DNA of 64,000 nt from an uncultured Phycisphaerales bacterium (GCA_963755915.1 CAVWLP010000003.1:416001-480000), one strand, 5' to 3'; counted from the first letter of the stretch, positions 36,228 to 57,524 are shown. The notes: generated by a model from the sequence alone, not told the origin. A program made the numbers and translations.

Positions 36228-36571
36228 TTTCGGGGTTGTCCTCCATCCCGTGTAGCAGAAGCGGTTTCGGCGAATTTTGCCTCTACCTCAGCGAGCCCCT
36301 TTTCGATCGTATCAAGATCCTCCTGGTACTTGGCCTTTTTCCGGGCGTTCTCATTGTTGATCTCGGCCAACTTCTCCTGGAGTTTTGCAACATCATCAGT
36401 GCCATATTTCTCTTGAGCCTGGGCCTTGAGTTCGTCCAGTCGCTTCGTCGCGCTATCTCGCTGCGTTTCGGCCTGAATCTTCTTTCTATTCAGATCCTGG
36501 TATCGCTGCTGAAGCTGTTCGATGGTCTGCCCGCCGGCATTGGCGGGTATTTTTGCGTCCGTTTTAGCCAT
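36224..36571 (-). CDS. small coiled-coil protein
   Basis: 115 aa rich in E/K/Q heptads; start and stop overlap both neighbours. Confidence 0.8.
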   Translation of the reverse strand: MAKTDAKIPANAGGQTIEQLQQRYQDLNRKKIQAETQRDSATKRLDELKAQAQEKYGTDDVAKLQEKLAEINNENARKKAKYQEDLDTIEKGLAEVEAKFAETASATRDGGQPRK

Positions 36572-37517: not shown

Positions 37518-38967
37518 GGAAACCTCCGACGCATGAACCGGCATGGAGGACGATCTGATTGGGATCGAGCTGGCCACCACACGTGGGGCATAATTGCTGC
37601 TGTTCGGCCCAAGTCCGCAATTGATGTTCAACTTCTCGAAGCGCTTGCTCGGCTTGCACGAAATCTTGCCTACGCGAGGCAATAGCCGCTGTCGCACCGG
37701 CTAGGTCGCGGATTGTCGCCTCGATTTCGCGGGTGTCCGCCATATCCGGCGCGGCCACCAGGGCGGCCAATTGACTGTGAATGACCTCCAAGCGCCGGAG
37801 TGCCGCCGTCGCTTGCGTTAAGGCTTGCACGTCCTGCGTTGGCGAAATCTCATCATCCAATTCGGGTGCAGTTGCCAACGGGCGTAAGATTGTTAGTTGT
37901 TGCTCCGACGCAGTCACGGAATGAGTCAGCGTAGCAATCTGTGCGGCAGTTGTTTGCAAGGTTGCGACCTCGATGATCGTGGGGGGTGGGATGAGTTCGC
38001 AGGTTGCGGCGCACTGACCGTCCAGACGGAGCGCTACGAGCCGAGCAGACTGTAAATCGCGGATGAGTTCTATGAGCGGTCGGTTGTCTTTGGTATCAGG
38101 GCACATTTGCAGTGCCGAGAGGGAAACGGCCCGATTGGTCTGCAATTCCACGTCCAATTCCGTGCCGGATATCGCCCCGATGGCATCTTCTAACGGCTGA
38201 GTATCTGCGAACTTCGGCGGCAACATCAACGCCTGAAACGCCATTGCTTCGGATTGGCGATGGTCCACCAGTGCGCTCCACTGGTCCAACAACTGAATAT
38301 CCTGCGCGAGTTGTCCGATACGTGATGCCAACTGTCCAAGTTCCTCGTGCCGCGACTCTACTTGTCCAACGCTGATTCCAATCTGATCCGTAGCTGCAAG
38401 CACCGCGAGATCTATTGCCAGCTTTTCCGCCCTGGCCTCCAGTTGGATACGTTCTCGGCGAGCGTCCCCCATCTTCTGCTGGTGCCGCTTCTGCATCTCG
38501 ACCAGACTCGCCGCGTCGGACGAAGAAGCAAAAAACTGGGCTGCGTGAGAACCGGGTTTGTCCAACAAGAACACGGGCGATTTCTGTTCGCCGAAGTGGA
38601 TATCAAACTCTCGATTACCTTCGGCTACGACCTTTGGCAATCGGAGCACGTCGTGAAGGCTCGCGGGGATGGCGTTTCGTTCAAGCCTATCGAACAACTG
38701 CCCGTCGATGGTATATCTTGGAGAATTGTTCTTGCGGCACCACTCAACGATGTGACCGTCATCGGTTTCGACAATAACTGAGCATTCCCTTTCATTGTGG
38801 CGAGTGACGTAGGTCGAGTTATCGTTGTGACAGAGAATCTGAAGCGCCGCCACGACGGCGCTCTTGCCACAGTTGTTGGGTCCTACCAGCACGGTCAGGC
38901 CATCCGCTGGTTCGATGACCGTGCGGGCGTGTGACATGAAGTTGACTAACTCGATGCGCCGAATCAC
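37510..38967 (-). CDS. N-terminal half of an SbcC/Rad50-type ATPase ending in a CPTC Zn-hook
   Basis: IELVNFMSH, Walker A GPNNCGKS, coiled coil, terminal CPTCG; no Walker B. Confidence 0.85.
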   Translation of the reverse strand: MIRRIELVNFMSHARTVIEPADGLTVLVGPNNCGKSAVVAALQILCHNDNSTYVTRHNERECSVIVETDDGHIVEWCRKNNSPRYTIDGQLFDRLERNAIPASLHDVLRLPKVVAEGNREFDIHFGEQKSPVFLLDKPGSHAAQFFASSSDAASLVEMQKRHQQKMGDARRERIQLEARAEKLAIDLAVLAATDQIGISVGQVESRHEELGQLASRIGQLAQDIQLLDQWSALVDHRQSEAMAFQALMLPPKFADTQPLEDAIGAISGTELDVELQTNRAVSLSALQMCPDTKDNRPLIELIRDLQSARLVALRLDGQCAATCELIPPPTIIEVATLQTTAAQIATLTHSVTASEQQLTILRPLATAPELDDEISPTQDVQALTQATAALRRLEVIHSQLAALVAAPDMADTREIEATIRDLAGATAAIASRRQDFVQAEQALREVEHQLRTWAEQQQLCPTCGGQLDPNQIVLHAGSCVGGFHA

Positions 38968-39140
38968 AGCTTAGCTCCGTGGCGGCCCTCCCTTTCCTAA
39001 GACGTGCCAGGAAGTGTACGGGAAAGCCCTGAAAATCGCTCCCGCCTCCGCCCTCGCTTGCGCGAGGGCGGAGGCGAAGACACAGTCTTATCCGAAAAAC
39101 CACTCGGTGGCTTGAATTAATGCGACGCTGGAAGAACGCG

Positions 39141-42100
39141 GTGTCCATTCAAGTGGGCCGCGTCGGCCTCCGCGGCAAGTCTTCAAGCGGCAACTGGCGG
39201 GAGACGGCGAAGGTGTCCATTCAAGTGGGCCGCGTCGGCCTCCGCGGCGGCGATGCCGGGGGGCGGGTTTTTCATAAACGCCTCGTGTCCATTCAAGTGG
39301 GCCGCGTCGGCCTCCGCGGCGATGGAGCGTGGAACTGCCCTCAGGTCGCTATGCAGTGTCCATTCAAGTGGGCCGCGTCGGCCTCCGCGGCTTCCAATTG
39401 GAGGTGCGAAGTGATTTCCTTGTTCAAGTGTCCATTCAAGTGGGCCGCGTCGGCCTCCGCGGCGTTTCGGTTTATACGGACAATGGCGGCAATGCGATGT
39501 GTCCATTCAAGTGGGCCGCGTCGGCCTCCGCGGCCACCATGTTCGCGTTAGCAAAGGATGATGATGCAAGGTGTCCATTCAAGTGGGCCGCGTCGGCCTC
39601 CGCGGCGGCCAAGCGGGCCGGGATTCGTCCCGAAACGCTTCAGTGTCCATTCAAGTGGGCCGCGTCGGCCTCCGCGGCGTGGCGAAGGTGGAGAAGCAGC
39701 CGGCGTTCAAGGGAGTGTCCATTCAAGTGGGCCGCGTCGGCCTCCGCGGCGACCATTATAGAACGAGTTGGAAGCGGATGCGCCCGTGTCCATTCAAGTG
39801 GGCCGCGTCGGCCTCCGCGGCTTAATTGCATCGGGGTTATTCATGGACGCGAAGATGTGTCCATTCAAGTGGGCCGCGTCGGCCTCCGCGGCTCGCGTAT
39901 CCGGTCCGCGTATCGCTAGATTGGTCGCGTGTCCATTCAAGTGGGCCGCGTCGGCCTCCGCGGCAATCTAGATGGATCGGCTAACAGGGTTCGGACGTTG
40001 TGTCCATTCAAGTGGGCCGCGTCGGCCTCCGCGGCAGGGAATTGCAAAGCCAAGGGGTTAACCCAACCGACCGGTGTCCATTCAAGTGGGCCGCGTCGGC
40101 CTCCGCGGCGCCGGGGCCGTGACGGAAATTGCAAATGGGGATTATGTGTCCATTCAAGTGGGCCGCGTCGGCCTCCGCGGCGTTGTGGAGATGAGGACGC
40201 ATCTGGCCGGTGCAAGAGTGTCCATTCAAGTGGGCCGCGTCGGCCTCCGCGGCATCGCGACAGAGCGCGAGATCGAGGGCGGGGAATATGTGTCCATTCA
40301 AGTGGGCCGCGTCGGCCTCCGCGGCTCACTGATACGGCACAGTATGTTAACGGTGTTGTGTGTCCATTCAAGTGGGCCGCGTCGGCCTCCGCGGCCGATA
40401 ATGAAAACATTCACTTTCAAAACAAGGTGATGTGTCCATTCAAGTGGGCCGCGTCGGCCTCCGCGGCCCTGGGGCTGGCTTAAAAACCACATCAAGATCA
40501 GTTGTGTCCATTCAAGTGGGCCGCGTCGGCCTCCGCGGCAAACTACCGCTCCGGGGATTGAAGCGTTTCGCACCCGTGTCCATTCAAGTGGGCCGCGTCG
40601 GCCTCCGCGGCCGTAACGGCGGCTTATGGCCGCAACAATACCCCACGTGTCCATTCAAGTGGGCCGCGTCGGCCTCCGCGGCGTCGTAACAATGCCTCAG
40701 CATGGTCCTGAACATCGTGTCCATTCAAGTGGGCCGCGTCGGCCTCCGCGGCTCAAATATCTTATTTCGCTCTTTTTTTCTTAAGTCGTGTCCATTCAAG
40801 TGGGCCGCGTCGGCCTCCGCGGCAATCCGTCGAATGCGGCATCACCACGTTCGACAGCGTGTCCATTCAAGTGGGCCGCGTCGGCCTCCGCGGCCTGTAG
40901 GATTAAATTGCGTATCTATTCCGTCGAAGGTGTCCATTCAAGTGGGCCGCGTCGGCCTCCGCGGCTCCGACCGCTGCAGCGCTTCGGTGTGATAACGGAT
41001 AGTGTCCATTCAAGTGGGCCGCGTCGGCCTCCGCGGCGCCAATTAACCGCACTCACCAACGCCAGCCTGGTCAAGTGTCCATTCAAGTGGGCCGCGTCGG
41101 CCTCCGCGGCATAAAGAGTTTGGAAATTGAGTAACCAGCAGTATCTCGTGTCCATTCAAGTGGGCCGCGTCGGCCTCCGCGGCTCAAACGCCAAATCCTT
41201 AAACCAACGAGCTTCAAAACGTGTCCATTCAAGTGGGCCGCGTCGGCCTCCGCGGCGCTGTCGTGCCTGTTGTGTTGGTGGCTGATTGTGGGTGTCCATT
41301 CAAGTGGGCCGCGTCGGCCTCCGCGGCGGATCAGTCTGAGCGTCTTCTCGGTGTTCGTATGTTGTGTCCATTCAAGTGGGCCGCGTCGGCCTCCGCGGCA
41401 GATCGACGAAGCCATCCCGGCAGGAGGAGCAGCAGTGTCCATTCAAGTGGGCCGCGTCGGCCTCCGCGGCACAAACACACAGTATACGGCCACCACAACG
41501 ACCGCAGTGTCCATTCAAGTGGGCCGCGTCGGCCTCCGCGGCAGAAGACGGCTGATTACGATACACAGCCGGGCCCAGTGTCCATTCAAGTGGGCCGCGT
41601 CGGCCTCCGCGGCCAGGATGGCAAGGTTCGTAGTTCTTCTGATAAGTCTTGTGTCCATTCAAGTGGGCCGCGTCGGCCTCCGCGGCGCGTAAGGAATTTG
41701 GGATTATTCGTGTTGCAAGGTTGTGTCCATTCAAGTGGGCCGCGTCGGCCTCCGCGGCAGGTGGCTGGTGAGCCAAGTAAGTCAATGCCTTCAGTGTCCA
41801 TTCAAGTGGGCCGCGTCGGCCTCCGCGGCTTCAATATCTTTTTTATATGTTCTAATATTCATTAAGTGTCCATTCAAGTGGGCCGCGTCGGCCTCCGCGG
41901 CACTATCGTCCGATATCTCCCCCAAAAAGGAGAAGGTGTCCATTCAAGTGGGCCGCGTCGGCCTCCGCGGCTTCGTGCCGAAGGCGGGACATGGAAACAG
42001 CAAGTTGGTGTCCATTCAAGTGGGCCGCGTCGGCCTCCGCGGCGCCCATTAGTAGCCATATCTAAACTCCGATATTAAGTGTCCATTCAAGTGGGCCGCG

Positions 42101-42970
42101 TCGGCCTCCGCGGCGCAAGCTGGAAAGGTGAACCGTTTGCTCCAGTACCAGTGTCCATTCAAGTGGGCCGCGTCGGCCTCCGCGGCTGGGAAGTGTCGGA
42201 GAAGATGCCGTACAAAAAATAGTGTCCATTCAAGTGGGCCGCGTCGGCCTCCGCGGCCTCGGATGGCTCGGTCGTCTGCTGGAAATGGCAGTGGCGTGTC
42301 CATTCAAGTGGGCCGCGTCGGCCTCCGCGGCACCGCGTGAGGAGCAGCGGCTCGGAGACGCTCGTGTGTCCATTCAAGTGGGCCGCGTCGGCCTCCGCGG
42401 CCGGCAGATTGATAGCGAGCACGGATCGGTGGCACAGTGTCCATTCAAGTGGGCCGCGTCGGCCTCCGCGGCAAATGTGAACCGCAGGCGTCGCCACGAT
42501 GAAGCCAACGTGTCCATTCAAGTGGGCCGCGTCGGCCTCCGCGGCTGCTGCAAAGCATCGCCGTTTCAAACAGGGAATGCGTGTCCATTCAAGTGGGCCG
42601 CGTCGGCCTCCGCGGCACCGGGACGATTATCGCTGAGGCAAATGGAGGGGCAGTGTCCATTCAAGTGGGCCGCGTCGGCCTCCGCGGCCGTGGAAGCCGC
42701 ATGGGAACGTGCGAGCAACACAGTGTCCATTCAAGTGGGCCGCGTCGGCCTCCGCGGCTAGTGCGAAGTAATACATTCGTCACTCCTGTAAGTGTGTCCA
42801 TTCAAGTGGGCCGCGTCGGCCTCCGCGGCATACCTGGGTGCGTGCAACATCCAGCCGACGTTCCGTGTCCATTCAAGTGGGCCGCGTCGGCCTCCGCGGC
42901 CTCATCTCAGGCTCATATCTCATTACCTATTAGAGTGTCCATTCAAGTGGGCCGCGTCGGCCTCCGCGGC
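39141..42970 (-). CRISPR. CRISPR array, 54 repeats / 53 spacers (34-38 nt); crRNA-sense repeat GCCGCGGAGGCCGACGCGGCCCACTTGAATGGACAC
   Basis: 36-bp repeats counted by eye; orientation inferred from the leader/tracr side and the GGACAC 3' end. Confidence 0.98.
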
Positions 42971-43020
42971 TGCCGCCCTCGCAAACCCCCGAAAACAAGC
43001 CACTTGTGAGGGCTCTTGCG

Positions 43021-43029
43021 AGTATAACA
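43021..43029 (-). promoter_or_regulatory. putative array promoter, extended -10 TGtTATACT in the leader
   Basis: minus strand ctgttatact about 50 nt upstream of the first repeat. Confidence 0.55.
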
Positions 43030-43195
43030 GATTTTGACGCAATCGAACGGCCATTTCGGGGACTCCTGACATCCATAAAACCGCGAGAATCGGCTTGTTT
43101 TGGGGCATTGCGAGCGTGCCCTGGACCCCCATTCACCACTGTCGCACTCGCGGCCGAAAGTACGACAGTACCAACCGAGCTGCGAACTGGGGCAG

Positions 43196-43320
43196 GCCGC
43201 AGAAGCCAACTTGTCAAAGAACGATGGCCCAAAGGGCCAACGCGGACCTGTTGAATGCCGAGTGCCAAGCCCATTAAAGGGGAAGACACGTACTCGGAGG
43301 TGATACCGCCTATAGCGGCG
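43196..43320 (-). ncRNA. tracrRNA of the type V-B system
   Basis: anti-repeat at 43235-43257 (19/23 match), second anti-repeat at 43196-43210 (12/15, all mismatches G:U-compatible), and GTGTC at 43285-43289 complementary to the repeat 3' GACAC. Confidence 0.82.
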
Positions 43321-43328
43321 CAGTCACT

Positions 43329-46300
43329 TTACCACGGGGTTACTGACGCTTCAACGGGCGCATCTTCGCGAGATAAGTGCGCTCGGCGAAGCAATGAAAC
43401 AACCCGGCACCGGACATCATTCCAATATTCAGCAGTGCCTCGCCAAGGGGAATTTGTGTCAATCGGCGAAGCCGAAATATCCCGCCAGAGGTTCACGATC
43501 TCGCGTTCCTTTTTGCCGGCCTTGGACCGGCCCGACTTCTTGCCGGTTTTTGGATCAGGCGTTTCGAGATCGCTCGCCTTAACTGGTACGAGGAAGAGAT
43601 CCGATGGAACGATGAAGCTTCCCTTGGTCTTCTCGGCAAGTGGCGTGTAGGTCGCTGACTCGCATGGAATGAACCACCACTTGCCGGAAAAATCGGGGTC
43701 GAGCAGCGCCTTCATGCCGACATTCGCGGCGGCGTTGAGGTCGGCTTGCAACCCCTTCGCAGCAGGCGAGCACGGGTCGGCTGAGACGAAGAGTTCGCCG
43801 CCATTCATGGGGATGCGGATCGCGGGCGCAAGTTTACGTTCGGAATCCGATTTTGAGGACCACTGTTTCTCGATCGTCACAAAAAATCGATCGCGGGCAT
43901 CACCCTTGTCAGCTTTTTCTTGAGCGACCTTGGCTTGTCGCCGCCACCAGGGTTTGGTCATGAAATCAATGACCGGCACATCAGCGCAGCGGATACCCGG
44001 CGCACCTGTGCGTGAATCCTGGCGAGACGTGTATCCGGCCTGGACTTCGCGGAGATGGAGTCCATGAAGTTGACAGGCTTCCGAAAGATACTTTTTGACC
44101 TTCGATGAGGACCATGACATCAATTGCCTGTTCTCGCGGCGCGTTTGAAGTTCATCGGGACGATAGTTGGTGAGGTTCTCGATCACGACCGCATGACAAG
44201 GAGCGTATTTTGCGGTGGGTTCCTCCACCCGCACCCATTTCATAAGCGTCGATCCATCCGCATTCTTTCGTCGCGTCTTGACCTGCTTCCAATGCCCGCC
44301 AAGCCCTAGCGCCGAACCCGCAATCCGGCTCGCAAGTTGCTTAACGCGCTGCTCGCGCATCTGCTCCATCGCATCAAGGATGGATTGCGCAACGCCAGCG
44401 TTTGTTTCACCCTTCTCCGGTGCGCCGCGTGGCTTATCGGGCTTGGCGCGCATCGCGAACGCTTTGTGCAACTGATAGAGCGACTTCATTGTGGCAATGC
44501 GCGTGAGCGACAGGCCGCCGACGTTCTGCTTCCAGCCAACATCTTCCTTATCGACGCCGGGCAAACGCCGACCCATGATCCAGTCGGTGAGCCAGCGAAA
44601 CTGTGCATATAGACCGACAGCCTTTTCCTTCGTGTCATGATTCGCAGGACTTCCATCATCTGCCTGCCAGCGATTGAGCCAAGCTGCGTGGACGACGCTG
44701 CGATTGGCTGCGGCAAGTTGCTCTGCGACTGATTTGAGTTTCTCCAGCAGTACATCATCATCCTTGCGACGCTGCTGGCGGGTGGGTCCTTCGGCAGTCT
44801 CATCGCGAGGCTTAGGGTCTTCGACCCGCCATCCGTTTGTCACCGTGGCGACGTGTTGGTTCCACAGATCACGCGCGGGCTTGTCATTCCACTTAAACTC
44901 ACTTGCAAGCGCGTGCCAATCGAACAGCGCGTCGGTCATTAGCTTGATATGAGCGGTATCGCCAGGTGTGAAGGGTTTCTCACTGCCGCCGATGCCCGAA
45001 ATGGTCTTGGTTTCCAGATCGAGCGCGTAGGCAATTTTTGCCCGGCGGGTGTGGCGTTTCAGGCCGAGTGCGGTGATGCGCACTGCACGGCCCATCAGCT
45101 CGTCCACTTCCCTTCCCTTGTCGCGATCTTCATCAGCCACCAAGCCAAGATCCGCCGCAAGTTTGGCGACCATCGCGACTTCATTGACCTGGCCCTTTTG
45201 GGAAGCCGCCCGCGCCGCTTTGTCCTCGCCAGGCAGCTTGATAAGGAATTGCCGATCGAGCCGGGCCCACGGAGCGGGATGTGGTGTGCCGTCGGATAGT
45301 TCGTCCGCTCCAATCCGGCGATAAATCGTGGTGCGAACCTTTCCGTTTTCGTCTGTATAGCGCGTATGGAGATAAAGATTCTCCGAACCTGCACCACCAG
45401 CGGATACTATCCTTCCGGAGATTTCTTCTGATAAATCGGCTAATGAAAGCGTCTCCCACACAGCACACGCCGCGGCGAAGCGATGGCCGAGGTCCACTGA
45501 AAGAACTCGAAGGTTGGGCAGACGGGATAGGATAAGTTTAGCGTGGCCGGAACGGGCGTCATTCGTTTGATGCTTGAGCGCGTATTCACCGCCGCGAGAT
45601 GCAAACGGTTTGGCCGGAGCGTCTTCAGAAAATTTTGCGATGTAATCTATCCATGGCCCAGCCGGTTGTAGCTTGGCGGAGAAGGAGACGAGCCAACGGA
45701 TGTGGTCGCGCATCTTTTTCGCTTTTGCATCCCACCCATGGTCTTTGATGTGTTTGGCGATCTTATCAAGCTGTGAACGTGGTGCTTGCAGCCGGCCGTT
45801 CCAGTCGGCCTGATTGAAAACGCCCAGAATGCTCACCGGTGACTTTTCATTCGCGCCCACGGCTGCGCGACCCAGGCGGTCGGCGCGGGTCACGTTGATT
45901 GCGGCATCGCCCGTCGATCGGTTTTGTAGCCCCAGATCTTTCGTCAGGCGTTTGCACGACCAGCGCATTGGAATGCTGTTGTCCAACTTCCCCCCATCCC
46001 ACAGCCCCATCGAAAGGGCGTGACGAGAATCCAGCCATGTGACCTGTTCGCGGGCTTCCCGTAAATCAGCCTCCGCTCGCTTAAGCTTTAATTCGGCGTC
46101 GGCCTGTTTCTCAGGTGTTTTGGTTTTGGCGAGCCGTTCCTTCGTTTTCTCCAACTCTGTCGCCCGCCGCGCAATAGTGGCCTTTGCATCAGTCAGTTTC
46201 GACGCGGCATCATGCACGGCGAAATGGATTTCCCACCGCGAATTGCCGAAGTCGCAGAAGACCGGGTGCGACAACGGATCGGGATGACGATACGCCGGCA

Positions 46301-48027
46301 CCTTGAATCGCTTCTGTTTGGCGAGCGCGTCGGTGGCGGTCGCGTAGTCGATCAGCGGCTGGGGCATCGCTTCGCCGTTCATCCGCCAGACAGCAATGGC
46401 ATCATCGGCGGCCAGCGCCTCAAAAAGCTGGATGTCACCAAACTTGTCGATGTCCGGATCGGCCTGCACGTTGCGGGCGACGGCAATGCGATCCTCGACC
46501 GTTTTACAGCTCGAACCACTCCATTTGGCGACCACTTCTTTCCAACCACCCACGGCGCGTCGGCGAATTCGATAGGCATCAATTGCTCCGGTTGCAGTGG
46601 AGCGATCATCGCAAAACCTCGCCAGCCACACGTTGATCTCGGCGGGCACCTTTTCGATCTTCGCCGCATCGATTTTGAACTTCTGCCGTTCGGATTCAGC
46701 GCGTTTGATCCACGAATGTCCGATCGACACTCGCCGGGCGGCGTGGTCGAGCATGACGGCAAACTCGGAATGCCGCGCTGGTCCGCCTTGTTGGAGATAG
46801 GTAAACCCACACGCTGATTCGACTTTTTCGAGAATCTTGTCGGACCACGGCGCCGGCCCTTGCCGCCGGTATTGGACTTGCACTTCTCACAGTCTTCGGT
46901 GGCGACGGTCTTCAGTTTCGTGAGGTCGTCCCCGGAAATCAGATCGACTCTGGATTCCCAAGCCTTGATAATGTTCCGCGTCGCACTCTTGTAGCCTGGT
47001 CCGCTGATCAGGCTGAGAATGCCGACGGCATCACTTGACTCAGGAGAAAATGCGACGAGCGACTCTGCCAGCGAATGGAGTGCTTCCGACCCTAATGCAA
47101 ACGCGGTTGCGTTGGCCGCCCATGAAGCCATCGCGTCGTAGGCTTTTGCCATTTCTGAAAAATCTGCCCCCTTGCCTGTGCCGAATCGGCTGCTAAGCCA
47201 TTGGCCGGCCTTCTGCACGAGGTCTTTGGCTTTGTCATCTTCCGCCGGTGGGTCGTCTTCGGAGTTATCAGGTGGATTGATCGGCGCAAGATAAGATTCC
47301 CGGGCGCCAAAGAACGGTTCGAGCAAGTCCCACACCTCTTCGCGCGTCAGCGATGGCCCCACTTGTTCCTGGGCGGCAGCAAACATGGCACTTCGGTTGA
47401 TCCACACGGCATCGTCACGAATCGCTGCCGAAAGGGATGGTTCACAATCGGCGATCCAGCTTCCAAAATCGGCTCCGGTTACGCCGCGATCGGCAAGAAT
47501 CTTCCGAAGCGCCCCGATCACTTTTTCATCCCTCTCGGATTGCGTTTTTTCGCCGCTAGCCACGACGAACTTCTCGTGCGAATCGTGTTGCTTTGGCGAC
47601 GATTCCACGCTTAGCCACGACAGGGACAGCAAAATGCGGCGATCGCGGATGCGAGCGCTCCGCCGGCGTTCAATCTCCGCGATGGCATCCCGCTCGGTGG
47701 GATCGGTGTCCTCCCTTTTTTTTCCCTTGATTAAATCTTTCAACGTGTTCGCGGTGAGTTTTTTCCCTTCGACCGACTGGGAATCAAAGCACGGTTCATC
47801 GGCCAACGAATGATCCATCCCGCCGCGCAGAGTTAGCAGCCAATCGCCGAAAACTTTGGCTCCATTGTTAACGGCCTCATGCGTTGCCCAGACGGCTGCG
47901 CGCAACCGTGATCCGTTTTGTCAACGCCGCGAAGTCGAAGCGTGTACGCCCGCTGCGTTTGAAATAACGCTGGAATAGGGCGATCCACGGTGTTTGAGTT
48001 TAGCTGTTTGGCTGCGGACTGCGGCAT
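43329..48027 (-). CDS. cas12b: type V-B effector Cas12b, about 1565 aa (single-base frameshifts near 47903 and 46849)
   Basis: N-terminal QRAYTLRL..WATHEAVNNGAKVFGDWLLTLRG; RuvC-I VLSVDLGHR, RuvC-II VVIENL..Y...RRENRQLM.W, RuvC-III ADLNAAAN; cas4-cas1 fusion and tracrRNA nearby. Confidence 0.92.
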
Positions 48028-48291
48028 TTGTAGTCATCTCCCGTATTACTTGACCAACGCAATTATCAGGGCCAGAATTGCGAGATTCGGGTACTGTCTC
48101 CATTCGAGTTTTTCCGTACCTTGTATCAGCCCAGAAGAGCGGGGGGACCGCAGAACGGCGCGAGAGCTTCTAGAATCTCGCTTCCCTGGCGGCCGCCAGG
48201 CTCATCCTCCGCTCTTCTGGCCCGATAGTTTGGCCCTCATGCCAAAATCAGAAATAGTCGCCCAACTTATCGGTCGCGCGGGCTACGGCGA

Positions 48292-48342
48292 ATTTGAATC
48301 GCTTGGGCTATGTTTGTCAAATAGGGCAACCCGACATAAACT
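48292..48342. promoter_or_regulatory. overlapping divergent sigma70-type promoters
   Basis: plus strand TTGTCA(48314-19)-N17-TAAACT(48337-42); minus strand TTGACA(48320-15)-N17-TCAAAT facing cas12b. Confidence 0.7.
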
Positions 48343-48348
48343 TGATTG

Positions 48349-48470
48349 GCCGCTATAGGCGGTCACAATATCGCTGAACGTGTCGTCCCCTTCAATGGGA
48401 TATGCACAGCGGCGCGAGAGATTAAATCGCGTGACACATGTCGGGTTCGGCTGCCCAACTGCCGAACTAT
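48349..48470 (+). ncRNA. putative natural single-guide RNA (tracr-like scaffold, hairpin, GACAC, promoter-targeting guide)
   Basis: shares gccgctataggcggt and acgtgtc.tcccctt.aatggg with the tracrRNA; guide ATGTCGGGTT at 48438-48447. Confidence 0.75.
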
Positions 48471-48641
48471 TAGATGACAACCATCCCGCTTTCCGCGTCA
48501 GGCAGACTCTCGCCCAACATGTCACGGGGTGCGCCAAAACCAGCCAGGGCGGGGCGCTTCAAAACCGGCCAATGTGCTGACGTATTCTATACCGCATCCG
48601 TTCTATCCGACGCAACTGTTCCTTGAGTTATTGGTCCCCGT

Positions 48642-49532
48642 TCACGCCGTCTGGCCGGCGGATACCCCCACATCAGAAGACAACGGCGGCTCTGTCACGG
48701 TGTCTTCCGGGGGGGAGCACCCTTCATCGCCGGCGGTACTCCGCCGTCCTTTTGGATTTGTCTTTTCCGGTGTCCCGGATTGGCCTGCCGTGAGCGAAGT
48801 CGAATGGCCCCCATGCCGAAGGCGGTAGCTCTTGCCGGTGATGTTGATGATCGTGGCGTGCTGCAGGAACCGATCCAGAATGGCCGTGGCCGCCGGCACG
48901 TCGCCGATCAGCTTGGCCCAGTCCTCCAGTGGACGGTTGCTGGTCATCATCGTCGAGCGGTTCTCGTGCCGGCGCATGACGATCTCCAGCAGGCATTCGC
49001 CGCTGCGCCGCGGAAGCTGCTTCATTCCCATGTCGTCGATGATAAGCAGATCAGGCTTGAGATACCGGGCCAGCGTCTTGTCCTGGGCTCCCAGATCCTC
49101 GTCGCCTAAAAAGTCGCGGGCCAGGTCGAAGATGGATCGGTACAGGACCACCAAGCCGCTCTTGATCGCCTGGTGTCCGATGGCCTGGGCCAAAAACGAT
49201 TTGCCCACGCCGGGCGGACCCAGCAAGAGCACGTCACGTTTGTCACGAATGAACTGGCCGGCGGCCAGATCGTGAATCTGTTTGCGTTTGATGGAGGTGT
49301 TGAAGGAGAAGTCGAACTCGTCGAGGTTTTTGGTGTCGCGGAACATCGCCGCCTTGACGCGCCGGCCGATCTGCCGGCTGGATCGGACGTTCAGTTCATC
49401 CTGAAGGATCAGTTCCAAAAACTCACTGTGGTCGAGCCGATTGCCGGCCGCCTCGCTCAGGCGAACTTCAAGGCTGCTCGCCAGACCTGAAAGCCGAAGT
49501 TGCTTGAGCGTCTGCATCAACGAAGGTCTCAT
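48642..49532 (-). CDS. istB: IS21 helper ATPase
   Basis: differs from copy 1 by one residue. Confidence 0.95.
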   Translation of the reverse strand: MRPSLMQTLKQLRLSGLASSLEVRLSEAAGNRLDHSEFLELILQDELNVRSSRQIGRRVKAAMFRDTKNLDEFDFSFNTSIKRKQIHDLAAGQFIRDKRDVLLLGPPGVGKSFLAQAIGHQAIKSGLVVLYRSIFDLARDFLGDEDLGAQDKTLARYLKPDLLIIDDMGMKQLPRRSGECLLEIVMRRHENRSTMMTSNRPLEDWAKLIGDVPAATAILDRFLQHATIINITGKSYRLRHGGHSTSLTAGQSGTPEKTNPKGRRSTAGDEGCSPPEDTVTEPPLSSDVGVSAGQTA

Positions 49533-51330
49533 GGGGTGGACTCCCTTCGGCTCTGCTCAGGGCAGGCCTGTAAAGGTTGTGCGGCAGGCAAAGCCTCCGC
49601 TTGGGTGATTGCGTCGCGTACGAACTGTCCGTAATCGGCCAGTCCGCGGATGATTGGATGTTCCTGAACAAACTCGAAGTGTTGTTGAACCGGCGCGCCG
49701 TTTTGGTGTTCGATGAGCTGCCGCAGGGAGCGCAGGTGATACGCGCCATGCCCCAGAGCAATCTCGCAGGCTCGTTCCACGGCCGGTCGCGGCTGCTGAT
49801 TGGCCAGCGACAGCAGCCCCATCAACACGCGCACGCCTTCGATGCCGCGATGCTGAAGCATTGACTGCGCCACTGCGTGGCGTGCGGCCCGATGCATTCG
49901 ATCCGCTGGAGAAGCCAGGTCGTTCCACGCTCGATGCCGCTGATCTTCTCCGGCAGGATATGGGCGTCTTGCGTCGAGAACCTGCCCGGCGGACGCTGCG
50001 CGTGCAGAGCGATCGCACGCATCTTCTGATCGAACAGCCGGACCGTGTGCCCGTCCCACCGCGCCCAGACCCGCTGGCCCAAAAACTCCGGCGGGACCGA
50101 ATAGTACGCCCCCTTGATCTCCACGTGCCCGTCGCGGTGAACACTGCGCAACGCCTCGGTGAAAAGATCGAATCGCACCGGCGGCAGAGCCAACAGTGCC
50201 GGCTTCTCTACCTGCTCGAAGACTTCCTTCACCTGCCGCCGCGTCGTGCCGTGGATGCGCGTGTCGGCCACGCTCTTCTCCCACGTCAGCAGATGCGCGT
50301 TCTGATCCGAGAGCGAGGCGAATTGCCGGCCTTTGAGAGCATTGCTCTTCACATAGCCGATGCCCCGCTCGATCTTCCCCTTGTGCCGCGGCGTGTACGG
50401 CTTGGTGGGCAGAATGGCGATTCCATAATGTTCGGCGAACGACCGGACCTTGGGACACAACTCCGCCTCGAACCAGTCCGCCCGCGTCACCGCCGCGCGA
50501 AGATTGTCGATCACCAGCGCTGACGGCATCCCGCCGAAGTGCGTAAAGGCATTTTCCAGACAACGCAGAAAATCATCGGTCGTCTGCCGCTCCACCGCCT
50601 CGGCGTACCCCTTGCGGCTGTGGCTCAGCACAATGCGGAAGACCCAGGTTGCTTTGCGTTTGCCGTCAGGACCGACCAGGGCGCACCCCGGCCGAAGTCC
50701 ACCTGCGCCTCGGCTCCCGGCTCGCATTCCATCCGGCGAAAGGGCGCCGGCGCGGCAGCCGAGAGCTTCTTGATGAACCGGCGCACGCTGTAATAGCTGC
50801 CGGCATAGCCGTGATCGCTGGAGATGTCTTGATAAATCCGCTGGGCCGTCAGCCCGGCTTCCAACTTCTGAACAATGACCTCACGCCAGGGCGATGCCGT
50901 ACTGACCGACCCGATCGGCGCGCCGGATAACCCGGTGGGCGCGCTCTCCGAGCCGCCTGCGGCGAGCACCGTCGAGCCGCCTGCGGCGAGCACCGTCGAG
51001 CCGCCTGCGGCGAGCACCGTCGAGCCGCCTGCGGCGAGCACCGTCGAGCCGCCTGCGGCGAGCACCGTCGAGCCGCCTGCGGCGAGCACCGTCGAGCCGC
51101 CTGCGGCGAGCACCGTCGAGCCGCCTGCGGCGAGCACCGTCGAGCCGAGGGGCGCGCTGGCCGGTTTTGAATCCGATCCGGGCGCCGCAGGATCGCCGCC
51201 CGACAACCGGATGTGGCGTCCAACGGTCTCCCGGTGAACGCCGAGTTGGCGGGCGATGTTCCGATTGGACCAGCCGCTGCGCAAGTGCCAAAATTGCTTG
51301 TACTTCCGCCATCTTGAGTTGATTGGCCAT
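49529..51330 (-). CDS. istA: IS21 transposase (frameshifted)
   Basis: same motifs as copy 1. Confidence 0.9.
50950..51141. repeat. 24-bp tandem repeat x8 inside istA
   Basis: same unit as 34727-34846. Confidence 0.95.
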
Positions 51331-51698
51331 CCCACCATTGGCTTGCGGCAACCGCCGAAAGCCAAGGTCGATAACCCAATCTCCTGTGCCTCAAAATGGC
51401 CGGTTTTGGCGCACCCTCAATTGGCCGGTTTTGCGCCCCCATGACACCCAACACGGTTGCCGCCTCTCTTGCGGCCTCCTCGTTGCTGCCAAGGTCCACG
51501 ATAAGGAGCTGGTCTTCCTTGAGATTGAGCACTTCGCGCGCCGCGTTTTCCAGCCGCACACGGTCGATGGCCTTGAGTGTGCAGTAGAACACGGAATACT
51601 GCCACGGTTCGCCGTATGCCTTCATGACTTTGTGGATTCGACGAAGGCGCTTGTCATTGCGAACGTCATAACAGACCAGATAGCACCGGCGCATGGTT

Positions 51699-53504
51699 TT
51701 ACCTCGTGGTCAGAAAAGCCAGCGTCGGCACCTCGCCAAGAAGCCACGCGGCCACAAGACGGGCATGCAGCATGAGCATGCGGCGATAACTTAGCCGGTA
51801 CTCGAATGCCGGGTGCTTCACTTCCGTGTCCATTCGTCGGCCATAGGCAGCGAAGAATCCTTTTCGTCCTGCGTCGGTTAGAGCGCAGCCGGAGGCGGTA
51901 TTAAGAAAATGCCCCTCGGTCAGTTCCCCGCGGTTGAATGCCGAGACGGCGATCGAATCGGCGATGAGCGGTCGGAATGGTTCCATTAGGTCCAGGGCGA
52001 GTGCGGGACGGCCCGGTCGCGTGGCGTGCAGTGCTCCGAGTGTCGGCTCCAGGCTTGCCAACCGACACGCGACCACGCATTCATTGGCCAGCATCGAATA
52101 GGCAAAGGAAAGAACCGCGTTGACTGGATCGGGTGGTGGACGGCGTTGTCGGCCATTGCTGTCGAATCGAGCAGCGATCTCGGCGACGCCTTTCTTAAAC
52201 ATGCCAGCAAAATGGGCAAAGTAGATCGCGGCGGCATTGCCTTCATGCCCACGCAGTTCGTCCAATGTGGTTGATCGCTCGGCACCAGCAACGCAGGTTT
52301 GAAGATCAGGCCCGACCCGCGATGGCAGCGCCGAATGATTTCGCATCAGCAGCGTGCGTTGATTAGCGATCTTGGCGACCGTCACTGCACGAGCCAATTC
52401 AAGCGTTTTTTCGGGTCGATCCAGAATGCGGATTTGGGCACCGCGTACGGCGGCGCTGACTGGCCCCAACGGGTCCATCATTGCCACCAGCCGACCTGCG
52501 GCGGTCAGAAAAGCAACCGGCACTTCGTGATCGGCGAAAACGGTTAGTGCTTGGGTCGATATCTGAACAGCGCCCAAAACTGCCAGCGATTCCATGTTGG
52601 CAAGCGGTAGGTCTCGGACCAGTTCACCATCTTTGTCGATGACCCTCACGGACTGGCCACGAACGCCAACGCGGATGCCCTCGCGCATAAGCACAACATG
52701 GATACCGTCGTCGCGCGGCGGCCAGAGTTTTCGCGGTGTAAGTTGCTCATCAACGGACTGACCGTTGACGGTGAGCGCCGTGAGCCGCTGGTGATTGATC
52801 TCGTCCGGCAAACAGATCGGCTGGAGCGAACATCGCGGGCAACGCGGATCATTGACCAGTGGCGGCGGACGCGGTCCTTGTGCGTCCCGCTTAGCCGCTT
52901 CTAATTCAGCCAGTGCGTTGCGTTTCAATGCCTCATCAACCACCACGCGAAGTTTGAGTTTCTCTGCGGCATAATAGAGATACGCTTCGGTGACCGTGTA
53001 TCCGGCCTCTTCAAGCAGAATCGCTTGCAAGCCGATTTGTACCCGGTCAGTCGGCCAAGGTTCTGGCCCTGGTAGCAACCGAGGTTCCTCCATCATCTCA
53101 TCAGTCGGTTCAGCGATCTCACCGTAGCGCTTCGGTTTTCCCTTGCGATACTCAACTGGAATCGCCGTCGTGCCCTGGATTTCGGCCAAGTCGAGCGTCG
53201 CCGTCAGGCCGAGCCGATCACTCGTGAGCACGAGGCTGCGTACCGATTTAGGTCGCTCTGGATCAGCCTCGGCAGTGGCTTCTTCTAATTTCTCAATGGA
53301 CTTTTGCCCCTTTTTGCCATTCTTGCCGTTTGATTCCAATGCCGGCGGAGCCTCGCTCGGACGATCTACACGGCGGTGGGTGCCCGCGCCCTGTTCCGTG
53401 TCGGCGCTGGGCAGAAAGACTCCCTCGACTGTCATGTAATAGAACAGGCGCGGACAATAAGCGTGTTCCGCGACGCCGCGGGATGGCCAGTGAACGGATT
53501 CCAT
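51699..53504 (-). CDS. cas1: Cas4-Cas1 fusion
   Basis: Cas4 motifs YCPRLFY, PVEYRKG, CPRCSLQPIC; Cas1 motifs LRGHEGNAA, NAVLSFAY, ALDLMEPFRP. Confidence 0.95.
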   Translation of the reverse strand: MESVHWPSRGVAEHAYCPRLFYYMTVEGVFLPSADTEQGAGTHRRVDRPSEAPPALESNGKNGKKGQKSIEKLEEATAEADPERPKSVRSLVLTSDRLGLTATLDLAEIQGTTAIPVEYRKGKPKRYGEIAEPTDEMMEEPRLLPGPEPWPTDRVQIGLQAILLEEAGYTVTEAYLYYAAEKLKLRVVVDEALKRNALAELEAAKRDAQGPRPPPLVNDPRCPRCSLQPICLPDEINHQRLTALTVNGQSVDEQLTPRKLWPPRDDGIHVVLMREGIRVGVRGQSVRVIDKDGELVRDLPLANMESLAVLGAVQISTQALTVFADHEVPVAFLTAAGRLVAMMDPLGPVSAAVRGAQIRILDRPEKTLELARAVTVAKIANQRTLLMRNHSALPSRVGPDLQTCVAGAERSTTLDELRGHEGNAAAIYFAHFAGMFKKGVAEIAARFDSNGRQRRPPPDPVNAVLSFAYSMLANECVVACRLASLEPTLGALHATRPGRPALALDLMEPFRPLIADSIAVSAFNRGELTEGHFLNTASGCALTDAGRKGFFAAYGRRMDTEVKHPAFEYRLSYRRMLMLHARLVAAWLLGEVPTLAFLTTR

Positions 53505-53687
53505 TATTCATCTAATCGGCGGTATTGAGAGCCTGCTTATTGACGCGCGAGCAGCAAAGACAGCGGAATTTCGCCATTCCAAGATTTTCTCGGACGTTGG
53601 GGTAGGTTGGTAATGTAATCGGCGGCTCCTTGAGCAACGACCCCATGTGTGGTGATACTGGCGAACGAAAGGCATGGACACGACGGC

Positions 53688-56600
53688 ATGGCGCAGGGGA
53701 AATCCCCACAGCTTCTCCTGGAGTTCAACGCGGTTCGCAACAGCGATCTTTTCTCCAACCATTGGCTGGAGAATCGCTTGCCCCTCGAACCGGAATGGAC
53801 CGAGGCGCGCAGAGGCATACGCCGCCATAGAGACGCTGACGGAACTTTGGAAAGTCCAAAAGAAACGTGTCGAGAAATACGACGGTGAGCAAATGCTCGA
53901 AGAGCAGTTCATTCAGCCGGTGCTACGCGCACTCGGCTGGAAGGACCGCATGCTCTATCAGACGTTTCTGCGCGGGCGCAAGCCAGACTACGCGCTCTTC
54001 CTTGATGACGGCCAGGTCGAGACGGCGCTCGCGAAGGGAAAGAATCATCCTGATTTTTGGAAGAGTCCGGTGATGGTCGCGGATGCAAAGGCTTGGGCCA
54101 TATCACTGGACCGCAAGGCGACCGTGGAAGCCAAGCGCGAATACCCGCCGGAGCAAATTGAGTGGTATTTGAACAACAGTCAGCTCGACTACGCCATTTT
54201 GACCAATGGCCGGTTGTGGCGGCTCGTCCCCAGGCAACATGATCCTGGCCAAGCCCGTTTTCAGACTTACCTAGAAGTTGATTTGCCACAACTCCTTGAC
54301 GAACGAATGGAGGTGCTCGATTCCAAGGTCTGGCCGGGATTCGACGACTTCCTGCGTTTTTTTCTGTTCTTTTCGCCGGTGGCACACCGCGAAACCGCCG
54401 AACGTCCCTCGCTTATTCGGCGCGCACGCGCGGGCAGTAGCGAGTACAGATTGGGGGTCGGGGAAGGTCTCAAGCAGCGAGTATTTGACGCATTGTCGCT
54501 TTGTGTCGAAGGGTTCGTACGGCATGAGGCGAACAAGTTGACTTCGTCGCCCGCCGACATCGAACTTTGTCGGCAACAAAGTTTCACACTCCTTTACCGG
54601 CTTCTCTTCGTGCTATTTGCCGAGGATCGAAAGCTGCTCCCATACAAGATCGACCGGGCCTACACAGACAACCGATCGCTTGGACGATTTCGTGACGAAA
54701 TCGCCAAGACGTTGGACCGCCTCGACCAAGGAAAGGACGTGGAGTTTCCTGAAAAACAGGTTCAATATTGGCCCGATCTGTTATCGCTCTTCGACCTGAT
54801 TGACGCCGGTGCCGCTCGCTATCGCGTACCCGCATACAACGGCGGCCTCTTCGATTCCGAACAGCATCCATTTCTTCGCGACAAAGTCCTTCCAGACGGA
54901 TATTTGGCCCGTGTCATTGATCGTCTGAGCCGTGCACCTGACCCGAAGCATCCCCACCTCGGGCTGTTTCGGGTCGATTACCGCGATCTCGCGATCCAGC
55001 ATTTAGGCAATGTGTACGAAGGGCTTTTGGAACTTCGTCCAAAAATCGCCGAGTCTGATCTGGTTGTCATTCGCACCACGAGCGCGAGACGACGCGGAGA
55101 AATATTTGCCTGCCGACGAACCGCTACCCAAGGGTTACGAGGCTACCGGTCAGCGATACGAAAAAGGTTCGGTGTACCTCGTGACCGACAAGGGCGAACG
55201 GCGCGCTTCCGGCAGTTATTACACACCGGATCATATTGTTAGCTACATCGTCGAGCGGACCCTTGGGCCGATTCGCGAGGGAATCGACCATCAACTGACA
55301 AGCGATATTGAGCGCACGAACAGGAATTGAAGCGTGCCCGTGGAGAAAATCGCGCACAGTTGGTTACTCGGATAGACACGCTCAAAGGCGATTTCGATGA
55401 TCGGCTGCTTCGGTTGCGGGTGCTCGATCCAGCCATGGGTTCTGGTCATTTCTTGATTCGGGCCTGCCAGTATTTGGCGGAGCAGGTCGCCACAAATCCA
55501 CGCGCAAAGGATGCTTCCCATACTGGCGGTGCTGAAGAATCGACGCTGGTTTACTGGAAGCGACGCGTCGCGGAGTCGTGTCTCTACGGAGTCGATCTCA
55601 ATCCGATGGCGGTGGAGTTGGCCAAACTCGCACTTTGGCTGGAAACCGTCTCGGTGAACCAGCCACTCACATTCCTCGATCACCATCTTCGTCACGGCAA
55701 TAGCCTCGTCGGCACGAGCGTCGAGTCCTTGGGCGTACTGCCCGGAACGGAACTCGTCAGCAACCGTTTTGAGCAGCAAGTTAAGCAACGTCTGCCGCGA
55801 CTCCTTGATGCGTTGGTCATGATTCGGCGCACGCCGTCTGACACGGTTGAACACGTGAAGGAGAAAGACAAGCTGTTCCGACGAACCTTTGAGCCGGTGC
55901 GCCAACCGTTTCTATTGTCGGCTCATGCCTGGTGTTCGTTCTTTTTTGCAAAGGCGGAAGAGCGGCTGAACAACACCCAATATGACGGGTTGATTGATGC
56001 GCTGGGGCAACCGAAAAAATTTGAAGCGATAGCATCATCTCCGCCGTGTTCAATAGCGATTCAGACGTGCGGGCCGAACGGCATCGCCGCGTTTCATTGG
56101 GAACTTGAATTTCCGGAAGTGTTCTTCGGTGAAGCCGGGTATCGGAGCGACCGGGGATTTGACGCGATCATTGGCAATCCACCGTATGACGTACTTTCTG
56201 AAAAGGAGACCGGCCGCGATCTGTCGCAACTCAAGGAGTTTATCGACAGGATGCCGGTGTATGCACCGTCCAAAGTTGGCAAAAACAACCTTTACAAGTT
56301 GTTTATTTGCCGGGCGATTTCACTTCTTGCGCCAGCGGCGCGATTGGGCTTCATTACACCGATGGCCGTTCTGGGCGATGAAGCCACTTCAAAGATTCGC
56401 CGCGAGATATTTCGTATCGGCCGCTTTCAGGCAATAGAAGCCTTTCCGCAGAAGGATGATCCCAATCGCCGCGTGTTTCGCGACGCAAAGCTATCGACAG
56501 CCGTTTTCATTCTACAACGCGTAGATGACGCTGATGGTCGGAAACAACCCTTTCAATCGCAGGTACACCCGGCGGACAGAATCGACGAGGTATCGGCCAT

Positions 56601-57524
56601 CCTTACACTCTCGGCGGAAGAAATTCCAAGTTACGATCCTGAAAACCTCACGATTGTCAGTACATCGGATGCCGACTGGCGGCTTGCCACGCGAATCACG
56701 CGCAGTGGAAGACTCGAACGGCTCGGGCATTTCGCACAATGCACTCAGGGTGAAGTCAACGAGACGGTGGCACGCGGCAAAGGTTATCTCGCGGATGCGA
56801 TCACGGACGGGGAACTCGTGGTACGCGGCTCAAATATCTGTCTGTACGTTCCACGCCTTGCATCGCAGGGTGATGACCTATTCGTCTCTGTACATCGATT
56901 CCTGGCCGGTAAGGGCGAAGATACGAAAGCATTTGATCATCGCTGGGCACGGGTCGGACTCCAGGAAAGTTCGCCGCAAAATAACTTCCGGCGGATCATT
57001 GCATCGTACATCGGTGCGGGCAAATTCTGCAATCACAAGGTCAACTATTTTCCGAGCGAAAATCATCCGTACCACTTGAATTTGTCCTTGCAGTTTTGAA
57101 TTCAAAGCTCGCGGATTGGTATTTTCGCCTGGGAAGCACTAATGCGGCCGTCAGCCACTACCAGCTTCATAATCTTCCCTGCCCGTCCTTTGCTAAGCAA
57201 TCTACTCCAGCGGACGCCCGGATGCTCAGCCAGGCGGTGGCAGCAATTAATTCCGCAAAGCTTTCTGATGTTCCCACAATTTTGGCGGCGGGATTAAGTG
57301 ATTCACCGTTCAGTCCTGCCGTTCGCGACACAATCTTCGAGGCGGTCGGGCGCATCATGGCAATTGAGTCTGCGCGTGGCGATATTGCCCGAACCGAACG
57401 ATCTGCCCTGGAGAACAAAGCCCAGCCCTATCAAGACCTGATCGACCAGTTGTTTTATCGCATGGCGGGTTTGAGCAACGAGGAAGTCACTGGGCTGGAA
57501 GGACGTCTAGCTCGCATGTTGTAA
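53688..57524 (+). CDS. type IIG (Eco57I-like) fused restriction-modification enzyme, about four frameshifts
   Basis: KPDYALF..ADAK and ILTNGRLWRL nuclease region; SGSYYTP, VLDPAMGSGHFL and IIGNPPY m6A-methyltransferase motifs; C-terminal TRD. Confidence 0.88.

Follow-up and report, generated by a model that had tools for sequence, protein, structure and literature searches.

A predicted tracrRNA-derived single-guide RNA that may lead Cas12b to its own promoter in a type V-B CRISPR-Cas locus

Taken as a whole, the evidence from locus structure, RNA anatomy and conservation makes it probable, on balance, that the RNA described here (S1) is a Cas12b-guiding single-guide RNA that represses two promoters, its own and an overlapping leftward one, giving negative feedback. 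In such a circuit, Cas12b probably throttles its own production together with that of the S1 RNA. S1 lies within the 445-nt gap between cas2 and cas12b in the window (the whole stretch of 64,000 nucleotides analysed, from an uncultured Phycisphaerales bacterium). The anatomy of S1, its conservation, the uniqueness of its target match in the genome and an intact cas12b gene are the observations from which the argument proceeds.

The locus is a type V-B CRISPR-Cas system read on the minus strand. It contains a Cas12b effector, a tracrRNA that pairs with the repeat, and a cas4/1 fusion together with cas2 and an array:

51699..53504, minus strand: cas4-cas1 fusion gene (PF01867 and PF01930; Cas1 E 3.4e-79, Cas4 E 1e-9)
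51447-51694, minus strand: 5' part of cas2 (PF09827), beyond the insertion element
48520..51446, minus strand: polymorphic IS21-family element (IstB/IstA) that interrupts cas2 and is flanked by a 7-bp target duplication, CCCAACA
48470..48519, minus strand: 3' end of cas2, with its stop codon at 48470-72
43329..48027, minus strand: cas12b (C2c1 RuvC-like domain PF22126, E 2.3e-24, on a 1184-aa frame)
43247..43321, minus strand: true tracrRNA (S2), with anti-repeat CATTCAA and a promoter, TTGAAG-N17-TAAAGT, overlapping the cas12b stop codon
39141..42970, minus strand: CRISPR array; its 54 repeats are identical and 36 nt long, its 53 spacers 34-38 nt long

The S2 RNA pairs with its own repeat, whose crRNA 3' end reads ...TTGAATGGACAC, through two segments: GTGTC:GACAC and CATTCAA:TTGAATG. 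The S2 promoter (43326-43354) lies in the terminal part of cas12b, whose TAA stop codon supplies the first three bases of the -10.

In the window, cas12b is spread over three frames; the genes of its relatives are single ORFs of 1452-1490 aa. A pseudogene was considered and rejected, as both frame shifts are bases missing from the assembly and present in short-read contigs: an extra G behind 46848 (contigs of public runs X2 and X5) and an extra C behind 47902 (contigs of public runs X1 and X2). These contigs have low depth (3-4.5), with two runs agreeing for each shift and X5 coming from a different study. Both shifts are read as assembly errors, and cas12b is intact. Other split genes in the same assembly (3 contigs, 81% marker completeness, 6.6 Mb) may also be artefacts. 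A contig of run X1 spans 47874-48428 and differs solely at the base at 47902, which independently confirms the promoter region discussed below. Among the public runs listed as covering 43200-48519, none is RNA. Contigs of runs X1 and X2 also join 48519 directly to the sequence from 51447 onward, across the point at which cas2 is interrupted (48519/48520); an IS-free cas2 allele therefore exists. A second IS21-family copy is found at about 32297-35223, and the two contain unequal numbers of units of a 24-nt tandem repeat (50901-51188 vs 34667-34924).

S1 is an inverted paralogue of the tracrRNA, that is, a second gene about 5 kb away and on the opposite strand. Its parts are:

48347..48467, plus strand: S1, predicted natural single-guide-like RNA (match to covariance model R1 at 48347-48422, 75.3 bits; folds)
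48347-48365, plus strand: 5' hairpin (from the fold)
48372-76/48407-11, plus strand: helix CGCTG/CAGCG (from the fold)
48380-84, plus strand: GTGTC, which pairs in cis with GACAC
48412-48432, plus strand: cis repeat:anti-repeat hairpin GCGCGA-loop-TCGCGT (from the fold; kept in all four loci)
48433-37, plus strand: GACAC, the conserved 3' end of the CRISPR repeat
48438-47, plus strand: guide ATGTCGGGTT, identical to the promoter target
48445-48467, plus strand: 3' hairpin (from the fold)

The relationship to tracrRNA is apparent from the scaffold. In the relatives and in the window, S2 opens with a 5' hairpin, continues with a helix around GTGTC and a CCC...GGG hairpin, and carries at its 3' end an anti-repeat able to pair with the repeat of its own locus. 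Covariance model R1, built from four S2 sequences and the upstream element of the window, was run over the window, 62 Cas12b loci from genome contigs and four duplicate regions, and gave 62 matches, 58 of them unique. Among the unique scaffolds, 55 lie downstream of the cas12b match on the same strand and three lie upstream on the opposite strand:

Window, 48347-48422, plus strand: upstream S1 scaffold, 75.3 bits
Locus L038, 3949-4024, strand opposite to cas12b: upstream S1 scaffold, 66.2 bits
Locus L066, 5578-5652, strand opposite to cas12b: upstream S1 scaffold, 57.4 bits

Within the window, the true tracrRNA scores 88.6 bits against 75.3 for S1. The second helix changes as pairs, from CCGAG/CTCGG in S2 to CGCTG/CAGCG in S1, and compensatory changes are found at 7 of the 20 scaffold pairs in the five-sequence alignment of the model. 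Across the whole family, in an alignment that had been fitted to the model, 94.1% of cells are paired, as compared to 32-57% after sliding the 3' partners by 1-3 columns; at 14 of the 20 pairs, both partners vary. A search of 36000-50000 against Rfam (E up to 1) gave no matches, so this tracrRNA family is absent from Rfam.

Downstream of the scaffold, S1 departs from tracrRNA. All four S1 loci share the cis hairpin GCGCGA/TCGCG(T/C), whose loop takes three forms (one in the window, one shared by L038 and L074, one in L066), and at each locus the sequence of the hairpin is unrelated to the repeat:anti-repeat pair used there. The GCGCGA anti-repeat is unable to pair with TTGAATG of the array repeat, making S1 a dedicated single guide and not a spare tracrRNA. 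The following GACAC is the invariant last five bases of repeats in this clade; in S1 the guide then follows, as it does in a crRNA. Finally, a 3' hairpin overlapping the last 3-5 bases of the guide is predicted at all four loci, with differing but compensating sequences. A mini-CRISPR organisation is absent: outside the tracrRNA anti-repeat, the repeat is echoed only by its final 5 nt (GACAC) in S1, no second pseudo-repeat follows the guide, and no repeat-like copies within 10 mismatches were found outside the array in 38000-44000.

The promoter of this RNA holds the match to its guide. Its elements, and those of the leftward promoter that overlaps it, are:

48314..48319, plus strand: -35 of the S1 (rightward) promoter, TTGTCA; invariant in all four S1 loci
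48337..48342, plus strand: -10 of the S1 promoter, TAAACT, ending 4 nt before the scaffold model starts; invariant in all four S1 loci
48315..48320, minus strand: -35 of the leftward promoter, TTGACA, overlapping the rightward -35 by 5 bp; invariant in all four S1 loci
48292..48297, minus strand: candidate -10 of the leftward promoter, TCAAAT, non-canonical, with C at position 2; predicted start of transcription at about 48284-48287
48338..48340, minus (non-target) strand: putative PAM, 5'-TTT, inside the rightward -10; GTTT in all four loci
48328..48337, minus strand: 10-nt target identical to the S1 guide ATGTCGGGTT; first 8 nt invariant in all loci

An earlier, sequence-only reading of this DNA had proposed these back-to-back promoters, TTGTCA-N17-TAAACT on the plus strand and TTGACA-N17-TCAAAT on the minus strand, with a PAM inside the plus-strand -10. 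Both hexamer pairs are indeed present, at 48314-48342 and 48320-48292, each with a 17-nt spacer, and the trinucleotide proposed as PAM reads TTT on the minus strand. It is followed there by ATGTCGGGTT (48337-48328), the same ten bases that come directly after GACAC on the plus strand at 48438-48447. The rightward promoter is of the sigma-70 type, with 9 of 12 consensus matches. A consensus promoter scan of 47500-49000 called 2 sites, vs 0.5 +/- 0.8 in shuffles. The leftward promoter, which has a perfect -35 and the 17-nt spacing, was not called because the scan demands A at -10 position 2, where this one has C. Since loose promoter patterns are common (TTGNNN-N16-18-TANNNT occurs at 0.36 per kb genome-wide and 25 times in the window), the hexamers on their own are weak evidence.

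The spacing between promoter and scaffold is more telling. A tracr-type promoter, TTGNNN-N16-18-TANNNT, ends 4-7 nt upstream of 48 of the 58 unique scaffolds, with 0.4 expected in shuffles. The distance from -10 to scaffold is 4 nt for S1 in the window and in L038, 5 nt for S1 in L066, and 4 nt for S2 in the window. This family-wide distance places the S1 transcription start near 48348, which fits the rightward start that had been predicted at the 5' end of the scaffold.

The guide match is also specific. TTN followed by ATGTCGGGTT occurs once in the 6.6-Mb genome, at the target site, where 0.47 occurrences would be expected genome-wide and about 3e-5 in the intergenic gap. A further claim, that a 20-nt protospacer would reach the shared -35, holds as geometry, protospacer positions 18-20 falling at 48320-48318; it does not hold as base pairing, as complementarity extends over only 10 of the 20 positions. 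The use of TTN as PAM is suggested for this clade by the habits of the Cas12b family. No full match to its own genome was found for any of the 53 spacers, the whole array had no match among 50,697 phage records, and the three leader-proximal spacers had 0 matches each in viral contigs; no protospacer having been found, the PAM remains an assumption. The best own-genome spacer match covers the first 19 nt of the spacer at 39177-39212 and lies at C2:260287-260305, with GGT as its 5' flank, which is without TTN.

Conservation of the module can be judged at three further loci: L038, L066 and L074. The last of these came from a metagenome scan with an S1-specific pattern, in which it was the sole further locus, and is close to L038. 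When 48290-48475 was compared by BLAST with 400 other genomes of the class, only G076 was found, at 85% over 143 nt; G076 and L038 share hit coordinates and are counted as one locus. The same query found nothing in 140 other genomes of the order or in 400 of the phylum (E up to 1e-6). The module is thus rare (3 of 58 unique scaffold matches), and the four S1 loci represent three lineages within one clade. Between the window and L038/L066, pS in cas2 and cas4/1 is 0.58-0.73, near saturation. With synonymous sites differing at 58-73%, unconstrained bases are expected to be largely randomised. Against this background, columns of the four-locus alignment are, by our count, invariant as follows:

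TTGTCAA (both -35 hexamers): 7 of 7
CCCGACATAAACT (seed match, PAM and rightward -10): 13 of 13
Leftward -10 (ATTTGA; ATTGGA in L066): 5 of 6
Rightward spacer, PAM-distal half: 5 of 10
Leftward spacer: 5 of 17

The conserved block ends where guide complementarity ends. The guide matches its target at 10 of 10 nt in the window and L074; in the remaining loci, L038 and L066, the match covers the first 8 nt, and L038 has identity at 9 of the 10 positions. The leftward -10 is TCAAAT in the window, L038 and L074 and TCCAAT in L066, always 17 nt from TTGACA. Guide-target covariation was not seen among the four S1 loci, as both sides are conserved; because the target sits in a promoter, selection on promoter function could account for some of its conservation. 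At L042, a locus without S1 (Cas2 83%, Cas4/1 79%), CCCGACATGGACTTCGCG stands right after the cas2 stop, at about 5990-6010, and resembles the antisense of the S1 guide, GACAC and a hairpin arm. By this resemblance, it may be a vestige of a lost module.

The leftward promoter had been proposed to read toward cas12b. The direction is correct, although in the relatives the first gene reached is a 59-aa ORF for a membrane protein, which is a remnant in the window. In L038, L074 and L066, TC(A/C)AAT lies exactly 9 nt before the ATG of this ORF, and the 9-nt interval is unrelated between L038 and L066 (CTTGGCATC vs ACAGGCACG). The protein starts MSKGRRS, has a Pro-rich stretch and ends in a C-terminal hydrophobic helix (...LAILALIIALVK), with hydropathy up to 3.4 over 19 residues. 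Its gene stops 20-40 nt before cas12b on the same strand and has a pN/pS of 0.30-0.37. It belongs to no Pfam family (the only match is at chance level, E 0.068), forms only 3 clusters among 5.8 billion proteins, and has no credible match in Cas12b loci without S1. The corresponding feature of the window is:

48046..48282, minus strand: remnant of the 59-aa ORF, with its start deleted, a TGA at 48202-04 that interrupts the frame, about 110 additional nt of palindromic sequence, and its last 12 codons kept

An intact ORF obscured by sequencing errors was considered and rejected: a contig of run X1 agrees with the assembly over 47874-48428 except for the gap at 47902. With the ORF reduced to a remnant, a leftward transcript would carry a leader of about 258 nt into cas12b. 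The extra sequence, within 48100-48200, is bounded on the minus strand by an inverted repeat, CCAGAAGAGCGG ... CCGCTCTTCTGG, and includes a 20-nt stretch 85% like part of S1 (48150-69 vs 48404-23).

From these features a mechanism can be proposed, in which transcription starts, binding, repression and de-repression are predictions. S1 would have originated when the tracrRNA gene and its promoter were duplicated in inverted orientation, and would supply both tracrRNA:repeat hybrids in cis: GTGTC with GACAC, and the 6-bp hairpin in place of the anti-repeat:repeat duplex. The Cas12b:S1 complex would recognise TTT in S1's own -10 and pair with 8-10 nt of the promoter spacer. This pairing would be too short for cleavage, leaving the complex seated on the 29-bp core of the diverging promoters. 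The tracr-L, CreR and CreA systems suggest by analogy that 8-10 bp may permit Cas12b binding without cleavage. With the PAM in the -10 and the seed in the spacer, the S1 promoter would be blocked directly. The leftward promoter, serving the ORF remnant and cas12b, would be blocked through steric cover of its overlapping -35, 18-23 bp from the PAM. Thus, of the proposal that one Cas12b complex could act on both promoters, occlusion of the rightward one follows from geometry, whereas the R-loop spans only 8-10 bp and cover of the leftward -35 is a steric inference. The outcome would be negative feedback on the Cas12b:S1 complex. Relief would come when Cas12b is drawn off S1, either by abundant tracrRNA:crRNA from the 54-repeat array or by inhibitors; de-repression by crRNA competition or anti-CRISPRs is what CreR and tracr-L would lead one to expect. 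Several features stand against the model. Complementarity in L038 and L066 spans 8 nt, fewer than the 11 of tracr-L; the 3' hairpin is predicted to take in the final 3-5 bases of the guide; and the leftward -10 carries C at the position occupied by A in every one of the 48 matched tracr promoters, this A being required by the search pattern. Also against it are a guide and target that are both conserved and do not covary, the rarity of the module and its restriction to three lineages, and the assumed PAM.

The small ORF raises a different possibility, compatible with the feedback model and partly overlapping with it: an addiction module of the CreTA type, in which S1 is the antitoxin guide, the 59-aa tail-anchored membrane protein is the toxin, and regulation of cas12b is a by-product. 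In the window, the toxin would have decayed, leaving the repressor half alone. The ORF is confined to S1 loci, being intact in three of them (L038, L066 and L074) and decayed in the window; the leftward -10 precedes its ATG by 9 nt, and its pN/pS, hydrophobic C-terminus, lack of a Pfam family and near-absence from the 5.8 billion proteins would all suit such a toxin; CreA likewise sits between PcreT and Pcas8. Toxicity is nonetheless putative, the protein is without similarity to any known toxin, and with cas12b 20-40 nt behind the ORF on the same strand, one promoter probably serves both. Moreover, in the window this ORF is dead, yet S1, its target, both promoters and cas12b all remain intact; the circuit has thus outlasted the ORF. 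We regard the addiction reading as unlikely. An extension that joins it to the feedback model is tentative and, in our judgement, rather doubtful: S1 and the 59-aa ORF would form a mobile 'guardian' cassette, S1 acting at once as antitoxin, self-repressor and cas12b repressor, and the cassette travelling with the adaptation genes and working with Cas12b proteins that are ~45% identical. If true, this would make S1 the first natural sgRNA known from any Cas12 system, and the pair the first CreTA-like one with a protein toxin in type V-B.

Two further readings dispense with Cas12b targeting. S1 might be the decaying by-product of a tracrRNA duplication or inversion, its 10-bp inverted repeat a scar or chance and without regulatory role. 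The 10-mers at 48328-37 and 48438-47 do form an inverted repeat around a 100-bp unit, the module is rare, and guide-target covariation was not seen. A decaying relic is nevertheless difficult to reconcile with invariance of the scaffold, cis hairpin, GACAC, seed, PAM and both hexamer pairs in the face of 58-73% synonymous difference, with pairing of the second helix and 3' hairpin kept via compensatory changes, or with a match that begins exactly after GACAC and abuts TTT; decay is very improbable. The other reading acts at the level of RNA: on read-through cas4/1-cas2 transcripts, the inverted repeat or antisense S1 would be a terminator or processing site insulating cas12b, or S1 would be an antisense RNA or spare tracrRNA. 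Consistent with this, S1 converges on cas2, with its 3' hairpin 3 nt from the cas2 stop codon, and loci without the module have short cas2-cas12b spacing (about 50 nt in L010, about 120 nt in L008, and short in L009); such gaps imply probable co-transcription, which an inserted structured block would change. However, the GCGCGA anti-repeat cannot pair with TTGAATG of the array, the hairpins are without a following U-tract, and the PAM, the register after GACAC and a promoter at the family-typical distance would all be left unexplained. The chance of this reading being right is remote.

RNA-guided self-repression of cas genes is already established for Cas9 (tracr-L) and for Cascade and Cas12a (CreR/CreA). 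As described in texts that cite Workman et al. 2021, tracr-L of the Streptococcus pyogenes type II-A system is a natural sgRNA that represses a cas promoter through an 11-nt match without cutting. S1 resembles it as a tracrRNA-derived single guide with a cis repeat-like segment, a short guide and a PAM-flanked site at a cas promoter; tracr-L is, like S1, encoded upstream of the effector gene. The two differ in effector (Cas9 vs Cas12b) and in origin: tracr-L is the long isoform of a single tracrRNA gene made from an alternative upstream promoter, whereas S1 is a separate paralogous gene with a promoter of its own. Furthermore, S1 has type V polarity, with its guide placed at the 3' end; it matches over 8-10 nt in place of 11, and its target falls within its own promoter.

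Within the available text of Liu et al. (10.1101/2023.03.10.532045), CreR of types I-B, I-E and V-A confers autorepression that crRNA abundance and anti-CRISPRs relieve, and in one case CreR acts at a TTTA-flanked site beside the -35 of Pcas12a, repressing that promoter. S1 and CreR have in common a degenerate guide, partial complementarity and a PAM-adjacent site on or close to the effector promoter's -35. However, CreR is a mini-CRISPR (pseudo-repeat, pseudo-spacer, pseudo-repeat) without tracrRNA, and S1 is a tracrRNA scaffold joined to the repeat 3' end. The same portion of that work (10.1101/2023.03.10.532045) places CreA of the Haloarcula hispanica type I-B system between divergent PcreT and Pcas8 and has it repress both. 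The likeness to CreA/CreTA is that of one effector complex between divergent promoters with a seed-limited match. The differences are that CreTA combines a class 1 Cascade with an RNA toxin, the candidate partner here being a 59-aa membrane protein of putative toxicity whose ORF is a remnant in the window, and that the second promoter here is the guide's own. Solved V-B structures show that tracrRNA normally forms two discontinuous hybrids with the crRNA repeat. Engineered Cas12b sgRNAs share with S1 the scaffold, two cis hybrids with the repeat and a 3' guide; S1 differs in being genomically encoded and conserved, and in a linker hairpin unlike the natural repeat:anti-repeat pair.

Among the papers listed by full-text literature search, none on RNA-guided cas regulation mentions Cas12b. 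Neither V-B nor Cas12b occurs in the main text of Liu et al. (10.1101/2023.03.10.532045) as far as that text was available; the available text of the Shmakov et al. preprint has no Cas12b case and mentions V-B twice, both times on tracrRNA; and a 2018 survey of tracrRNAs had too few V-B loci to treat this type in detail. What appears to be new is the predicted use of tracr-L/CreR/CreA logic by a Cas12b system, through a tracrRNA duplicate and with the promoter of the guide RNA itself forming part of the target. This suggests that type V-B reached the same solution by another route, in which a tracrRNA gene was duplicated and a repeat end and seed-length guide were welded on. If confirmed, S1 would offer: an evolution-tested natural single-guide scaffold for the large (about 1,450-1,560 aa) Planctomycetota-type Cas12b; a compact bidirectional promoter switch under one nuclease complex; and a testable case of the minimum number of base pairs for stable, non-cutting Cas12b binding. 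Repression by a guide RNA of its own promoter would add a second feedback loop, absent from the described systems.

The components of the locus have mixed affinities. Between the window and L038/L066, protein identity is 97.6% for Cas2 and 84-87.5% for Cas4/1, as compared to 44-46% for Cas12b. S1, leader, repeats and adaptation genes of the window are nearest to L038/L066, and its Cas12b is nearest to L013/L025 (57%). Such affinities suggest an exchange of the effector inside the locus.

The CRISPR leader, between tracrRNA and array (43100-43250 in the window, and the downstream regions of L010, L038 and L066), shows strong conservation across loci. Examples of its conserved motifs are TCTTTGACAAGT..GGC, GCGAGTGCGAC.GTGGTGAA and CAAGTGGC.TGTTTTC, and the leader probably holds the array promoter and integration signals. 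The wider setting is a defence or mobile-element neighbourhood. Adjoining the distal end of the array (36564-38967) are overlapping ORFs with AAA_15/AAA_23 ATPase and calcineurin-like phosphoesterase domains, which may be another defence pair. At 53674-57099, an MmeI/Eco57I-like restriction-methylase is divided into two ORFs, possibly by another assembly shift, and a VirB4/TraG-like ATPase is encoded at 58931-61342.
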